The notes beneath the pieces were generated by a model, which was not told where the DNA came from, did no database searches, and saw nothing but the letters and a program-made list of their open reading frames with translations. 64,000 nucleotides of DNA from a phage: the sequence record PZ445521.1. One strand, written 5' to 3'. The position numbers and the translations under genes were made by a program. The number at the start of each line of letters is the position of its first letter. Positions within the stretch are counted from its first letter, which is position 1. Below are positions 23,573 through 28,240 of this stretch, piece after piece.

Positions 23573-23773
23573 ATGGTACAAAAATTAATGGCACTTGTTG
23601 ATGCCATAAAAGGTAATAAGAAACGTATAGCTTTTACTATTTCTGCTATGGTAGGAATTTTACTCTGGAACTTTATTCTATCACCTGTTGCGATTGCACA
23701 TGGTATTAATATTCCAGTAGTTACTCTTGATACATTCGTAGATTTAGCATTTGCTTTAGTTGGGTTAATTTAA
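23573..23773 (+). CDS. small membrane protein, 66 aa (plus strand)
   Basis: AAGGAGGA Shine-Dalgarno 4-5 nt before ATG; two hydrophobic helices; stop overlaps primase stop; only well-supported plus-strand ORF in the window. Confidence 0.4.
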   Translation: MVQKLMALVDAIKGNKKRIAFTISAMVGILLWNFILSPVAIAHGINIPVVTLDTFVDLAFALVGLI

Positions 23774-24798
23774 ATCTTGGCATATTTAGATAGCCGCATT
23801 TTAGCCATCAACCCCTGGGCAATATTATTTTTCATATATTCCATAATTTGTTCAGTGGTTGCACCTTCCTTTCTAATCATATCATTAACATCTTTTGATT
23901 TCCAGGGAGATTTATCCCAAAACATAACCCTTTCTCCTGCATCAACTAATTTAGTCATTCGCTTAATAGTGTCAGGATGACGAGGTTCATTATCTAAAAC
24001 CCACACACGTCTATCTTTAAATGGAACAACTTCTAGGTCTAATTGACCACCCGTAATAGCTATACCATTTTCAATAAAAAGTGAATCTATAGGTCCTTCT
24101 AGAACATATACATCACCATCTTTAACTCGTTCTACTCCATAGATTTTTGTTGCCTCAGGATAAGCTTTGATGGTGATATATTTTTGAGGAGCATCTTTCT
24201 TTAATGCACGTCCTTGAAAAGACTCAGCTTTTCCATTAGCATTATAAATTGGAATAACAAGACGAGGCTCAGAAATTTCCTTTTTATATGTTCCCGGTGC
24301 TATACTATTAACTAATTTAGGCCATTCGGTTGTAAACCAAAGATATTTCCATTTATCCTTTGGAATACAACGAGCTTTTACGTATTTTATAATTGGATGG
24401 TCTTCCGCCAGTTTATCTAATCTAACACATGACGGAAGAGATTTAATTATTTTCTTCTCAGGTTGTTTAGGAAGTTCTTTAGGTTTTTCTACTGGACGAC
24501 TTTTACCTTTTTCTTTTCTTATTTCAAAGATATACTCACGATATAAATCAGGTTCAAACTCCTTTAAATATATTCCGATTGGTGCATGATAGTTACAGTT
24601 ATAACAATGAATATTTCCTTCATTATTATCGCCATAATACCATCCACGAGCTTTATTCTGGTCGGTTTTTGAATCTCCACAAACAGGGCATCTAAACCGT
24701 AATTTAAAAGTTGAACTATTATTTACTTGTGTGAATTTAGGTAAATGGGCTAATGCACGATACGCAAACTCATTATCAATCCAAGGTATTGATGACAT
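23770..24798 (-). CDS. 61: DNA primase gp61
   Basis: 342-aa ORF, same length as T4 gp61; zinc ribbon CPVCGDS ... CYNC; TOPRIM-like EGPIDS / LDNE. Confidence 0.9.
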   Translation of the reverse strand: MSSIPWIDNEFAYRALAHLPKFTQVNNSSTFKLRFRCPVCGDSKTDQNKARGWYYGDNNEGNIHCYNCNYHAPIGIYLKEFEPDLYREYIFEIRKEKGKSRPVEKPKELPKQPEKKIIKSLPSCVRLDKLAEDHPIIKYVKARCIPKDKWKYLWFTTEWPKLVNSIAPGTYKKEISEPRLVIPIYNANGKAESFQGRALKKDAPQKYITIKAYPEATKIYGVERVKDGDVYVLEGPIDSLFIENGIAITGGQLDLEVVPFKDRRVWVLDNEPRHPDTIKRMTKLVDAGERVMFWDKSPWKSKDVNDMIRKEGATTEQIMEYMKNNIAQGLMAKMRLSKYAKI

Positions 24799-24800
24799 TT

Positions 24801-24965
24801 TTACTCTTCTTTTTCTTTAGATTCCTCTTTTTTCTTTTTAGGAATCTGTTCAGGACCTTTATTTACTACAGCACCTGATGTTGTTCCAGTAGAGATATTT
24901 TCAGGATTACCACCTGAATCTCCAGCAACCATATCTTCTTTAATAAATTCTTTATATGTTTTCAT
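24801..24965 (-). CDS. hypothetical protein, 54 aa (61.1-like)
   Basis: Read from DNA: MKTYKEFIKEDMVAGDSGGNPENISTGTTSGAVVNKGPEQIPKKKKEESKEKEE; TAATATG junction with upstream gene. Confidence 0.5.
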   Translation of the reverse strand: MKTYKEFIKEDMVAGDSGGNPENISTGTTSGAVVNKGPEQIPKKKKEESKEKEE

Positions 24966-24966
24966 A

Positions 24967-25323
24967 TTAACCTCTATTCATAAAAGCATTAAAAATTTGG
25001 TCATCAATAGATGGCGCAGTAATATTTTCTGCATCATTTAGCAAATCATTAATTTCATCGGATAGCATAACACATGTACCTTTATTTCCTGTAATTGTTA
25101 CTGCACAATTACGAACGTTTTCTTTATCAAATTTTAGGTTAATATTTTCGTAGTGAAAATCCTTTAATGCCGAATATATCTTTAAAATGAAATTGTCTTT
25201 TACTACAATAAACCCAACCTCACTATTAAAACGCGGTTCATGGAAACTGTAATAAACCTTTTCATCTATAAAATCGTATGAAATTTTTTCCATTTTTAAA
25301 TATGAAAATTCAGAACTATACAT
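24967..25323 (-). CDS. hypothetical protein, 118 aa
   Basis: ORF track; C-terminus SIDDQIFNAFMNRG encoded by the duplicated junction cassette. Confidence 0.55.
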   Translation of the reverse strand: MYSSEFSYLKMEKISYDFIDEKVYYSFHEPRFNSEVGFIVVKDNFILKIYSALKDFHYENINLKFDKENVRNCAVTITGNKGTCVMLSDEINDLLNDAENITAPSIDDQIFNAFMNRG

Positions 25324-25324
25324 A

Positions 25325-25957
25325 TTAACCTTTATTCATAAAAGCATTAAAAATTTGATCGTCAATAGAAACTTTTACTTTAGGCTGTTCTTCAAACGGT
25401 AATTCATATCCACATATTACAATTTTGTGATCGATACCAAAATACACAGAAGCAATATTATTAATATTATTTTCAGTGAAATCTAAATCAACATCAATAT
25501 CTTTTTGACTAACGCTCAAAGGATAATTAATACGAATAATTCGATTATCTTTAACAAAGATTCCACCGACATACTCTGTGCTGCGTTTAAAGTTTACACG
25601 TTTCCTAAATGAAAAATATTCAGGTTCTTTATGGGCTCGACTCATAGGGCTTAAAGTGTATTCCGAATATGAAATATCAAATCCTACACCTTCAATATGA
25701 GCCAAAGTATCATGATTAAACCAATTATAATCGTATGCCAAATCCATTAAATTGTAATATGTGAAAGGCACCGGATTAACATCATATGTTGTACCTTTAA
25801 AATCTGCCCAGGCAACGATTTCGTTATCTTTAACAATTACAAAAATTGTGCCAATAAGATATCCACGGTTATTTTCATCAGGTGTTATATTATAACATTG
25901 TGCATCAGGAAATTTACCGTATTTAAACGGTGGATTTTTGTGCATATAATAAATCAT
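25325..25957 (-). CDS. hypothetical protein, 210 aa (61.2-like position)
   Basis: ORF track; length close to T4 61.2; C-terminus SIDDQIFNAFMNKG. Confidence 0.6.
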   Translation of the reverse strand: MIYYMHKNPPFKYGKFPDAQCYNITPDENNRGYLIGTIFVIVKDNEIVAWADFKGTTYDVNPVPFTYYNLMDLAYDYNWFNHDTLAHIEGVGFDISYSEYTLSPMSRAHKEPEYFSFRKRVNFKRSTEYVGGIFVKDNRIIRINYPLSVSQKDIDVDLDFTENNINNIASVYFGIDHKIVICGYELPFEEQPKVKVSIDDQIFNAFMNKG

Positions 25958-25958
25958 A

Positions 25959-26252
25959 TTATTCGCCTGTGATTTCGGTTACGATATTTTTGTTATTAAA
26001 GTTTTTATCGCAATACAGAACATAATTATACTGCATTACACCACCAGACTTAAGTTGTTTTTGCACTTCAGCTTTCATTTCAGGACGATCGCGCTCAACG
26101 ATATTCATAATATCCGCTTCAATTTGAGTTTCAACTTCAGTCTGATCTGCAGTCATAGACCATTCACACAAATCTTTATCATATCCTGCCATAGCAGGCT
26201 GAGCAGCACAAGAAGCCAAAGTAAAAATTGTAGCAAAAATAAATTTTTTCAT
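25959..26252 (-). CDS. sp: Spackle periplasmic protein
   Basis: 97-aa ORF with signal peptide, recognised as T4 Sp. Confidence 0.8.
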   Translation of the reverse strand: MKKFIFATIFTLASCAAQPAMAGYDKDLCEWSMTADQTEVETQIEADIMNIVERDRPEMKAEVQKQLKSGGVMQYNYVLYCDKNFNNKNIVTEITGE

Positions 26253-26312
26253 GATAATCTCCTCAGTAGTTTATGTTTATATAGTATCTCAATTTCCAAC
26301 AAAAGTAAACAG

Positions 26313-26570
26313 CTATTTTAAAACTTCTGCGTAATCACATGTTACAAACTGTTTCTCTAGCTTAACGATTTTACGAAAATACCTTTTATACTGACGAATC
26401 TGCCTCTTCGTAGGACGTACAGCAAACTTAATAAATTCCACTCGACCAAATGGAGGACTTTCTTCTGCTGGAATATCTAGCACCAATTCCCACGTATCTG
26501 CAATAAGTGCTTTGAATTGAGTATTTTTCCTGACGTTATACGGAGTAGGTTTAAATAAAACAATATGCAT
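26313..26570 (-). CDS. hypothetical basic protein, 85 aa (61.4-like position)
   Basis: ORF track; immediately upstream-adjacent to dmd. Confidence 0.55.
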   Translation of the reverse strand: MHIVLFKPTPYNVRKNTQFKALIADTWELVLDIPAEESPPFGRVEFIKFAVRPTKRQIRQYKRYFRKIVKLEKQFVTCDYAEVLK

Positions 26571-26571
26571 A

Positions 26572-26754
26572 TTATCCTCGGCAATCTACTTCACATACTT
26601 TCTTGTCATCAATGAAAGCTTTAACTAATGCTTTATTAACTTCAGCATATTGAGTAGTAGCCCATTGAACGTCATCTTTCATCATTGTGGTTTCTTTAGT
26701 AAACATGCTTTCATTCTTAAACCACCCCATAAAAACTACCTTTACCAATTCCAT
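26572..26754 (-). CDS. dmd: Dmd antitoxin (inhibitor of host RnlA/LsoA)
   Basis: 60-aa ORF MELVKVVFMGWFKNESMF..., recognised as T4 Dmd; early promoter upstream. Confidence 0.8.
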   Translation of the reverse strand: MELVKVVFMGWFKNESMFTKETTMMKDDVQWATTQYAEVNKALVKAFIDDKKVCEVDCRG

Positions 26755-26777
26755 AACAATCTCCTCATTTAACCAAC

Positions 26778-26815
26778 AAGACTACTATACCATAGTCTCG
26801 TCAGCTTGTAAACTA
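26778..26815 (-). promoter_or_regulatory. early promoter (-35 TTTACA, -10 TATAGT)
   Basis: tgtaaa 26807-26812, actata 26784-26789, 17-bp spacer; lies just after gene 41 stop. Confidence 0.55.
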
Positions 26816-28240
26816 AAATTTTAATTCATTCGCCAAAGCATCTAACTGAGCTCGAGTGGATTCATTTCTTTGATAGCGATTCTGCTCAGCCTGAATCTGT
26901 TGTGAACCTGCTACTTCACTCACTTCAGTTGGAGTAGAATCTTGTTCGATTTCTACCCATTTCTGATTTCCCTTTTGAACACCCATCAAAAACTTATTCC
27001 ATTTATTTTTATCACCATATCGTGATTTGATTTGCTTAATGAGTTGTTGTTCAGCAGCTGCTAACTCCTCGGTTTCAATGACCGCAAGCATAAAATCGGC
27101 TGTTGCTGGAAGACCGGCAGATTCTGCAATATCGCTCATGTTAACATCGGAAGAGTCCCAAGCTTGTTTACCAACCTGTGCTGCAGTCCAAAGAACAGTT
27201 TCGGTTTCAACAGCAAGAGCACGCAATTCCTCTGCAATAGCTTTAACAGTTGTGTAACTATTTTCTGAATAAACTCTAATGCGGCAAGATTTACAAATAC
27301 CCAGATAGTCGACAATAATGATTGTTGGAACAAAATTCTTCTTAAGCTTCAATTCGTTTAAAAGTGATCGAAATGTATTAGCATCTGCTCCACCAGTAGG
27401 ATACTGTTTAACGATTAAACGACCGAGAGTAGATTTCTCGCGCCATTTTTCCATTTTTCCTTTATACTCAGCGTAAGAAATATGCCCATCATCAATGTCA
27501 TCAAGAGAAACATCAAGCATGTTAGCGTCAATACGCTTAGCACAGACTTCTTCTGCCATTTCCATGGAAATGTAAAGAACATTATGTCCGAGCTGTAAAT
27601 AATCTGCCGCTAATGAACACAATCCTAATGATTTACCAACGTTAACGCCAGCCATTAAAACGTTCAGTGTTCCAGTTTCAGCTCCGCCTTTAGTAATTTT
27701 GTTTAGAATTCTGAGTTTAAATGGAACCTTACGAGCTTTATTCATATAAGATAGCCAACGCGCTTCATAGTCATCCATCCAATCATGACCAACGTAGCTA
27801 TCAAATGAAATTGATAATGCTTGGCGCATGATGTCAGGAATAGCACCTACATCTGGCATTTTCTTATTTCGTTTTTCCGGAGGAAGCTCAGCATTAGTTT
27901 GAATTTCGATTATTTTAGACGTAGCATTAAACATCGCCCTTTGCTGAACATATTTTTCTGTTTCTTTTACTAACCAGCTGTGGTCTTCTGGAGAATCAGC
28001 CAGTTTTGAAATAAGTGTTTTTACACCAGAATATTCTGTTTCAGTAAATGAACTATTTTCTAATGCAACATTTAATGCATTAATAGATGGAACGCTATGA
28101 TACTCATTAACATGAGATTTAATTAATTTGAATGTATTTTTAGCTGGACCACTTTCAAAATATTCTGAATCCATATATGGCCAAACTTTTGAAAAATAAG
28201 CTTGATCAAATATAAGATGAGAAAGAATAATTTCTACCAC
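26813..28240 (-). CDS. 41: replicative helicase gp41 (DnaB-like)
   Basis: 475-aa ORF, same length as T4 gp41; Walker A GVNVGKS. Confidence 0.92.
   Translation of the reverse strand: MVEIILSHLIFDQAYFSKVWPYMDSEYFESGPAKNTFKLIKSHVNEYHSVPSINALNVALENSSFTETEYSGVKTLISKLADSPEDHSWLVKETEKYVQQRAMFNATSKIIEIQTNAELPPEKRNKKMPDVGAIPDIMRQALSISFDSYVGHDWMDDYEARWLSYMNKARKVPFKLRILNKITKGGAETGTLNVLMAGVNVGKSLGLCSLAADYLQLGHNVLYISMEMAEEVCAKRIDANMLDVSLDDIDDGHISYAEYKGKMEKWREKSTLGRLIVKQYPTGGADANTFRSLLNELKLKKNFVPTIIIVDYLGICKSCRIRVYSENSYTTVKAIAEELRALAVETETVLWTAAQVGKQAWDSSDVNMSDIAESAGLPATADFMLAVIETEELAAAEQQLIKQIKSRYGDKNKWNKFLMGVQKGNQKWVEIEQDSTPTEVSEVAGSQQIQAEQNRYQRNESTRAQLDALANELKF

Follow-up and report, generated by a model that had tools for sequence, protein, structure and literature searches.

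The window analyzed here is a stretch of 64,000 nucleotides of phage DNA (PZ445521.1), which carries on its minus strand four ORFs coding for proteins of 210, 97, 85 and 60 aa, followed by further small genes. As in T4, this gene island is flanked by the genes for the gp41 helicase (26813-28240) and the gp61 primase (23770-24798), and synteny comparisons show its gene order to be shared with T4, RB69, T2 and JK38. Over the tested stretch (24700-26900), the sequence matches the deposited Shigella phage JK38 (Tequatrovirus) genome at 100% identity. The main features from the helicase end onward are given below; the biochemical activities named are those published for the T4 and RB69 proteins, from which they would carry over to the present ones:

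26784-26812, minus strand: early-promoter-like site upstream of dmd (TTTACA, a 17-nt spacer and TG-TATAGT; 10 of 12 positions match, with a TG extension)
26572-26754, minus strand: dmd (gene 61.5), 60 aa, protein that directly inhibits the endoribonuclease toxins RnlA and LsoA (Pfam, T4 identity, PDB)
26313-26570, minus strand: tifA (gene 61.4), 85 aa, binds RNA and inhibits the endoribonuclease ToxN (T4 identity, Pfam DUF7279)
26281-26310, minus strand: possible second early promoter in the 60-nt tifA-sp spacer (GTTTAC, an 18-nt spacer and TACTAT, read from the sequence)
25959-26252, minus strand: sp (spackle, 61.3), 97 aa, inhibits the tail lysozyme gp5 and acts in the periplasm (Pfam, T4 identity, PDB)
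25325-25957, minus strand: adfA (gene 61.2), 210 aa, anti-DarT factor A (Pfam AdfA, RB69 and T4 homology)
25457-25459, minus strand: AAT codon of AdfA Asn167, equivalent to RB69 R164 (CGT) and T4 H165 (CAT)
24801-24965, minus strand: 61.1, 54 aa, the last small gene before the primase gene 61 (phrog_1823, E = 7e-34, and synteny with T4 61.1; no Pfam match)

The 60-aa protein is Dmd, as the initial annotation had confidently proposed: it shows a full-length match to the Pfam Dmd family (PF17587, E = 1.8e-45), is identical to T4 Dmd at 59 of 60 positions (98%), with I22T as the single change, and matches the T4 protein crystallized with LsoA (PDB 5hy3_B, 'Antitoxin Dmd', E = 9.6e-37). The activity against RnlA-type toxins that had been attributed to it agrees with the literature, where dmd is described as an inhibitor of RnlA (PMC9391042); the protein would plug the RnlA/LsoA RNases. 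The tifA gene starts 1 nt past the dmd stop codon and the two genes are thus co-operonic. Its product is likewise nearly unchanged with respect to T4 TifA (83 of 85 residues identical, 98%; C61Y and I83V) and matches the Pfam domain DUF7279 (E = 3.7e-20). Gene 61.4 has been named tifA for ToxN inhibitory factor A (PMC9391042), and work using the K55A R56A R59A mutant of the RB69 protein indicates that ToxN inhibition requires RNA binding (PMC10853763, NAR). All three of these residues are invariant in an alignment of the window, T4 and RB69 proteins, and TifA would bind ToxN together with RNA to form an inactive ribonucleoprotein trap. At residue 41, Ser or His constitutes a strong-inhibitor allele and Phe the weak T4 allele (PMC10853763). 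The window protein has Phe, as does wild-type T4, and lacks the strong-inhibitor residues; hence, it is predicted to overcome low-level toxIN and not plasmid-level toxIN, which predicts sensitivity of the phage to strongly expressed toxIN.

In T4, dmd-tifA is driven by an early promoter upstream of dmd (PMC9391042). The promoter-like site of the window immediately abuts the gp41 stop codon, precedes a GAGGAG ribosome-binding site and probably functions as an early promoter in this phage too. For T4 there is also mention of 'a promoter downstream of tifA' (PMC9391042), and the candidate in the tifA-sp spacer, which falls below the promoter-scan threshold and is again followed by GAGGAG, may represent a second early promoter. 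As shown for T4, early promoters would probably drive the island genes shortly after infection. A 10-nt sequence, TGAGGAGATT, present at the ribosome-binding sites of both dmd and sp, 502 bp apart, brackets the dmd-tifA pair. No tRNA or Rfam matches were recovered anywhere in the 64-kb window.

The 97-aa protein is Spackle, with a full-length match to Pfam T4_Spackle (PF25676, E = 5.8e-45), 94% identity to T4 Sp, matches to the solved structures 6x6o and 7cn6 ('Protein spackle') and an N-terminus, MKKFIFATIFTLASCAAQPAMA, that reads in translation as signal-peptide-like. It would be exported to the periplasm and inhibit the tail lysozyme of superinfecting phages. Spackle is thus a superinfection exclusion protein that is functionally unrelated to the anti-toxin genes and is not a counter-defense factor. 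The initial annotation had viewed the segment as a possible counter-defense cluster inclusive of spackle; since neither Spackle nor 61.1 has a known anti-defense role, that label holds for dmd, tifA and adfA only. PADLOC and NCBIfam models matched none of the six island proteins, nor the neighboring plus-strand ORF.

The 210-aa protein matches the AdfA family over its entire length (Pfam PF23813, E = 3.2e-139, score 461.7 bits with a cut-off of 27, residues 1-210 on profile positions 1-211) and is encoded by an intact gene, with 88 of 210 positions invariant in an 18-sequence alignment. Its relatives form only 16 clusters at 90% identity among 5.8 billion proteins, all bearing PF23813. Gene 61.2 has been named adfA, an inhibitor of DarT (PMC9391042), and for AdfA of RB69 (anti-DarT factor A) both PMC9391042 and PMC11257639 cite LeRoux et al. 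2022. The placement of the 210- and 85-aa proteins at the positions of T4 61.2 and 61.4, with the suggested link to escape from DarTG and ToxIN, is therefore sustained by synteny, by identity to the T4 proteins (73-74% and 98%, respectively) and by the published names, and the comparison with AdfA sequences that the initial annotation suggested finds its closest named counterpart in RB69 AdfA (83%). The latter is a full-length homolog at the same place downstream of sp; it differs from the window protein in a 5-residue insertion before the C-terminal tail and at the residue equivalent to its position 164.

That residue (RB69 164, T4 165) is described in PMC11257639 as deciding the binding and neutralization of DarT1: wild-type RB69 AdfA, with R164, does not bind DarT1, whereas the R164H escape form, with the T4-type His, does. 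The window AdfA has Asn in place of either Arg or the neutralizing His; this concerns its activity on DarT1, which is uncertain as a consequence, and not its family membership. In a 17-phage panel, all 13 AdfA homologs had His or Arg here (PMC11257639), and we found no test of the Asn allele in the papers cited here. The peptide with the Asn recurs exactly in 49 of the 427 phage records bearing the motif, so that the allele is not a one-off lesion. The protein would bind the DNA ADP-ribosyltransferase DarT, and Asn167 could shift its specificity, perhaps adapting it to a different DarT variant. In T4, AdfN (gene 30.3, elsewhere in the genome) does the work on DarTG1, such that deletion of adfA is silent there; its deletion in a phage that also lacks adfN is likewise without phenotype (PMC11257639). 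The physiological target of T4-type AdfA is thus only putative. A profile of the AdfA alignment recovered nothing meaningful among solved structures (the best match was dCMP deaminase, E = 0.29). Its N- and C-terminal halves, compared as a possible internal tandem duplication that we do not claim, align with each other over 68 aa at 26% identity by BLASTP (E = 0.024), and hhalign aligns between them only a 12-column VKDN motif (probability 11%). A 15-nt inverted repeat in adfA (25411-25425 and 25749-25763), perfect in this phage, is considered a chance occurrence as it is not conserved in T4 or RB69.

Taken together, gene identity, order, intactness and conservation, including that of the known critical residues, are established in the present analysis, and we consider it very probable (about 0.9) that the locus is the conserved early-gene anti-toxin-antitoxin island of T4-like phages between genes 41 and 61. 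Each anti-toxin gene therein would furnish a small protein that directly binds and blocks a different host abortive-infection toxin. The island itself is already known, the T4 region having been termed the 'anti-TA island' (Srikant, Guegler & Laub 2022, eLife, PMC9391042), and the finding only confirms it in a JK38-like Tequatrovirus; in practice, it is of use for annotation and for predicting host range. The window resembles the T4 island in its genes, their order, strand and flanks, in the promoter-like site upstream of dmd and in the 1-nt dmd/tifA junction, but differs in the above-noted TifA and Dmd substitutions, in an AdfA closer to that of RB69 than to that of T4 and in an extra 118-aa gene between adfA and 61.1.

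A competing view, which we judge somewhat unlikely, is that these are generic hyperplastic, non-essential early genes whose adjacency is accidental, with the Asn167 AdfA being inactive on DarT and DarTG resistance deriving wholly from AdfN. The gene content of the interval lends it some weight: in RB69, imm and imm.1 lie between sp and 61.4, which points to a general hyperplastic early-gene region rather than a dedicated anti-TA locus, VR7 has several additional ORFs plus two 61.4-like genes, and Spackle and 61.1 are not anti-defense genes. The replacement of the neutralizing His and the silent T4 adfA deletion fit it as well, as does the report that DarTG1 sensitivity is uncorrelated with the presence or type of adfA (PMC11257639, PMC11825919). 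Against it, dmd and tifA form a single operon, and their products, for both of which anti-toxin activity has been demonstrated in T4, are here almost identical to their T4 counterparts; moreover, adfA is intact and conserved, and its Asn allele is recurrent. We retain the anti-TA island as the preferred reading.

The extra gene and the repeated sequence at its two ends are located as follows:

25321-25369: repeat copy A, comprising, as read on the coding strand, the last 14 adfA codons (SIDDQIFNAFMNKG), the stop and, overlapping it in TAATATG, the start codon of the following gene
24967-25323, minus strand: 118-aa gene, stand-alone homolog of the AdfA C-terminal half (Pfam, phrog, BLASTP, hhalign)
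24963-25011: repeat copy B, comprising the tail of the 118-aa gene, the stop and the start of 61.1

The 118-aa protein matches the Pfam AdfA profile at 31.9 bits (cut-off 27), with its residues 22-118 aligning only to profile positions 113-211, and belongs to phrog_4122 (E = 2e-72). It shows 37% identity to AdfA by BLASTP (E = 6e-11), and hhalign pairs it with the C-terminal half of AdfA at a probability of 98.2% (E = 4e-14) as against 8% for the N-terminal half, where only the VKDN motif aligns. Both proteins share the same C-terminal tail, and the AlphaFold model of the short one has a pLDDT of 81. By these profile comparisons, it is a homolog of one half of AdfA and not an AdfA ortholog, as it does not have the full-length architecture. 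The gene is found in 333 phage records, including T2, whose 'gp61.2' (118 aa) is 97.5% identical to the window protein and sits between sp and 61.1. Thus, three arrangements are observed: T4 has adfA only, T2, described as naturally without an adfA homolog (PMC11825919), has the short gene replacing it, and in this phage the two coexist, with both genes covered in 158 of 633 records.

The junction cassette is a 49-nt direct repeat with copies that are 94% identical and spaced by 358 nt. The shared tail, back-translated into a degenerate pattern, gives exactly two hits across the 64-kb window, as compared to zero expected from shuffles. The initial annotation had placed a duplicated junction cassette in the segment 25325-26754 and had taken it as a sign of active rearrangement. 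The repeat is real, though only one copy lies inside that segment; rearrangement stands on the evolutionary scale, as a presence/absence polymorphism among phage genomes, and not in the window itself, where all genes are single-copy and nothing points to amplification or rearrangement. The second copy and the bracketed gene lie just outside the segment.

The repeat brackets the 118-aa gene exactly, that is, the very segment whose presence varies among T4, T2 and this phage. Furthermore, copy B has exactly the sequence of the T4 adfA tail, and an adfA with the copy-B version of the tail is what would be expected after a crossover. We therefore propose that the 118-aa gene would be a cassette bounded by the 49-nt repeat and gained or lost through recombination there, which would make it a naturally occurring case of a cassette that comes and goes where a gene junction is repeated. 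The flanking of functional units by direct repeats recalls the microhomology-driven amplification and deletion reported in T4, but at 49 nt the repeat far exceeds the 6-10-bp microhomologies reported there (PMC9391042).

We give an even chance to the repeat being kept mainly for a required peptide, SIDDQIFNAFMxxG, predicted to form a terminal helix, together with translational coupling, in which the last codons, AGAGGTTAATATG, provide the ribosome-binding site and the overlapping stop/start of the next gene, rather than for recombination. What is conserved in the tail is the protein sequence, the codons differing synonymously (GACGAT versus GATGAC between the window copies), with further changes in VR7, RB69 and viral contigs. 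The DDQIFNAFM tail is also the C-terminus of at least three distinct protein families of the island, namely AdfA, the short form and the approximately 145-aa VR7 ORF039c (phrog_8539), and is followed in most loci by TAATATG or TGATATG and in the rest by TAAAATG or TAGTATG. AlphaFold predicts the tail helix at residues 198-207 of AdfA and 106-115 of the short protein, although at a pLDDT of only about 52-60. Selection for peptide and coupling is not mutually exclusive with recombination, and it is the latter that would yield both the exact bracketing of the variable segment and the copy-B tail of T4 adfA. We also considered the VR7 ORF039c family as a homolog of the AdfA N-terminal half, with AdfA as a fusion, and found no support for this, as hhalign gave a probability of 0.8% (E = 0.07) and only the tail is shared.

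Returning to the cassette reading, the C-terminal half of AdfA is the one that carries the DarT-specificity residue. We tentatively raise the idea, which we regard as unlikely, that the 118-aa protein might be a free-standing AdfA C-module acting as an independent inhibitor with its own toxin specificity, with the invariant tail serving as both functional handle and recombination linker. If true, T-even phages could swap or stack anti-toxin 'heads' via the DDQIFNAFM tail, and T2 and phages like the present one would bear a second, unrecognized anti-toxin factor. The gene offers a cheap and well-defined candidate for an additional factor of this kind. In sequenced phages it is often annotated as '61.2' or 'hypothetical'.

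The helicase gene 41, the primase gene 61 and all the genes between them form one run on the minus strand at 23770-28240 (ORF table of the window):

23770-24798, minus strand: gene 61, primase, 342 aa
24801-24965, minus strand: 61.1, 54 aa
24967-25323, minus strand: 118-aa ORF
25325-25957, minus strand: 210-aa ORF (AdfA)
25959-26252, minus strand: 97-aa ORF (Sp)
26313-26570, minus strand: 85-aa ORF (TifA)
26572-26754, minus strand: 60-aa ORF (Dmd)
26813-28240, minus strand: gene 41, helicase, 475 aa

The initial annotation had proposed a possible counter-defence cluster at 25325-26754, whose limits coincide with those of a block of four ORFs running from the 210-aa to the 60-aa protein. Pfam recovers AdfA (PF23813) end to end in the 210-aa protein (E 3.2e-139), T4_Spackle in the 97-aa protein (E 5.8e-45), DUF7279 in the 85-aa protein (E 3.7e-20) and Dmd in the 60-aa protein (E 1.8e-45), and the identities to the T4 counterparts (NC_000866) are 73% for AdfA/61.2, 94% for Sp, 98% for TifA/61.4 and 98% for Dmd. 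These matches bear out the earlier Dmd call and answer the suggested comparisons of the 210-aa and 85-aa proteins with AdfA and TifA. Solved T4 structures are matched as well, 5hy3_B by Dmd and 6x6o/7cn6 by Spackle; PADLOC and NCBIfam scans of the four proteins gave zero matches. At least one recent GenBank record (H113) already uses the name 'anti-DarT factor A' for adfA.

The earlier link of this locus to DarTG and ToxIN escape is correct: 61.2 is adfA, whose product in T-even phages inhibits DarT toxins, and 61.4 was renamed tifA because its protein inhibits ToxN, while Dmd (61.5) directly inhibits RnlA (PMC9391042). The counter-defence label fits dmd, tifA and adfA; Spackle, whose well-known role is another one, is a bystander. 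With the observation confirmed and its interpretation supported, the cluster is the published T4-type anti-toxin–antitoxin island, already known biology, in a phage that has a deposited genome. A megablast search with 24700-26900 matched 665 phage records, nearly all Tequatrovirus and relatives, and the Tequatrovirus Shigella phage JK38 (MK962755) is 100% identical across the entire query, with the same genes annotated as in window 23770-28240. Relative to base 1 of the JK38 GenBank record, the window begins about 7.5 kb further upstream (rIIA stop at window 7497), so its source is either a copy linearised at another point or a phage very closely related to JK38. No tRNA genes or Rfam families (gathering threshold) were found across window 1-64000. 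Three modest leads lie outside the cited literature, namely an Asn167 allele of AdfA, the joint presence of adfA and a half-AdfA gene bracketed by a repeat, and a C-terminal tail common to three families.

TifA binds both ToxN and RNA, trapping the toxin in a ribonucleoprotein; its potency is tuned by residue 41, with Phe (T4) weak and Ser or His strong, and RNA binding is reported to be necessary for inhibition in work using a K55A R56A R59A mutant of TifA-RB69 (PMC10853763). The window TifA retains K55, R56, R59 and Phe41 and differs from that of T4 solely by C61Y and I83V. By analogy with T4 TifA, it should be adequate against chromosomal but not plasmid-level toxIN (PMC9391042).

As for AdfA, DarT1 binding by the RB69 protein requires R164H, and deleting adfA from T4 produces no DarTG1 phenotype, since this role falls to the NADAR enzyme AdfN (gene 30.3); the alleles in the published 17-phage panel are His and Arg only (PMC11257639, PMC11825919). 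In a three-protein alignment, Asn167 of the window AdfA (AAT, 25457-25459) lies opposite RB69 R164 (CGT) and T4 H165 (CAT). Across 17 other aligned sequences, which comprise the T4 and RB69 proteins and representatives of the other 15 of 16 protein clusters identified among 5.8 billion sequences, this position is His in 15 and Arg in 2. The Asn allele is no singleton: the 23-aa peptide carrying it has exact matches in 49 of 427 phage records. The adfA coding sequence also holds a perfect 15-nt inverted repeat (25411-25425/25749-25763, arms 323 nt apart), which is probably fortuitous since it is not conserved in adfA of T4 or RB69.

The 118-aa protein, a member of phrog_4122 (a PHROG of unknown function), scores above the cut-off against Pfam AdfA over the C-terminal half only (31.9 bits, profile positions 113-211). 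It shares 37% identity with the window AdfA (BLASTP, E 6e-11) and aligns with the C-terminal half of AdfA in hhalign (probability 98.2%, E 4e-14). Its fairly confident AlphaFold model (pLDDT 81, core >89) predicts a five-strand β-meander followed by a helix, a strand, a helix and a terminal tail helix; the weaker AdfA model (pLDDT 68.6) has matching elements in strands 127-159, helix 162-173 and tail helix 198-207. Asn72 of the 118-aa protein aligns opposite AdfA Asn167, with His there in one homologue. We regard this protein as a half-AdfA paralogue rather than an AdfA orthologue.

A repeat search found that this gene is bracketed by a 49-nt direct repeat, 94% identical (24963-25011 and 25321-25369), whose start-to-start distance of 358 nt exceeds the length of the gene (357 nt) by exactly 1 nt. 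Read along the coding strand, both copies have the sequence TCTATTGA(Y)GA(Y)CAAATTTTTAATGCTTTTATGAATA(A/G)AGGTTAATATG, which takes in the final 14 codons (SIDDQIFNAFMN[K/R]G) together with the stop codon and, overlapping it, the start of the following gene. The 118-aa gene is absent from T4, where adfA ends in the sequence of the 24963-25011 copy, which in the window is the tail of the 118-aa gene, and leads directly into 61.1; T2 shows the converse, with sp, the 118-aa gene and 61.1 in order and adfA absent, which fits the published statement that T2 has no adfA homologue (PMC11825919). The short protein is present in 333 records. Among 633 phage records matching a query of adfA plus the short gene, 158 contain both (>=80% of the two-gene query covered), the remainder each matching just one part of the query, either adfA or the short gene. 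The best explanation for the presence/absence polymorphism that the repeat marks is recombination at the tail common to the two genes. Thus, the duplicated junction cassette described earlier is real, but the active rearrangement read from it is supported only on an evolutionary scale, by this polymorphism among phage genomes; nothing is amplified or rearranged within the window itself.

A degenerate-pattern scan of viral contigs with ORF extraction showed that the tail S[IV]DDQIFNAFM[NK][RK][GD] ends three kinds of protein in the Tevenvirinae gene 41-61 island (window 24963-25011 and 25321-25369; VR7, 2059-2857 of locus L005; further loci L006-L021).

Protein families ending in the common tail
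AdfA: 208-216 aa
Short (half-AdfA) form: 117-119 aa; Gaprivervirus VR7 and relatives carry a version with 44-50% identity
VR7 ORF039c/phrog_8539: ~145 aa

The body of VR7 ORF039c/phrog_8539 has no detectable similarity to AdfA, the tail alone being aligned by hhalign (probability 96%). In most loci a TAATATG or TGATATG stop/start overlap directly follows the tail. Synonymous sites in it vary both between and within genomes, which argues that constraint acts on the peptide, as well as on the embedded ribosome-binding site and the stop-start overlap, besides or instead of DNA homogenisation.

The interval from the gene 41 stop to dmd holds a T4-early-type promoter-like site (26812-26784: TTTACA, 17-nt spacer, TG-TATAGT), and the 60-nt tifA-sp spacer carries a weaker GTTTAC/18 nt/TACTAT element that fits the 'promoter downstream of tifA' of the T4 literature (PMC9391042). 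Promoter-like matches in the region do not exceed shuffled expectation (17 versus 13.1 ± 3.3), and these candidate assignments draw on position and T4 precedent. The 10-nt sequence TGAGGAGATT occurs as an exact direct repeat at the ribosome-binding site of dmd (26758-26767) and at that of sp (26256-26265), the copies flanking dmd-tifA 502 bp apart. T4 amplifies dmd-tifA in tandem via such microhomology under toxIN selection (PMC9391042). The window contains no such amplification.

The 41-61 interval is highly plastic among relatives: RB69 has imm and imm.1 between sp and 61.4 (L003, 5012-5690), and VR7 has two 61.4-like genes plus several additional small ORFs (L005, 1078-3246). Between genes 56 (dCTPase) and 61, where T4 has a dam methyltransferase gene, the window phage lacks dam. 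A lone plus-strand ORF there (23573-23773, 66 aa, hydrophobic) is annotated as hypothetical in JK38 and resembles by position the plus-strand ORF029w of RB69.
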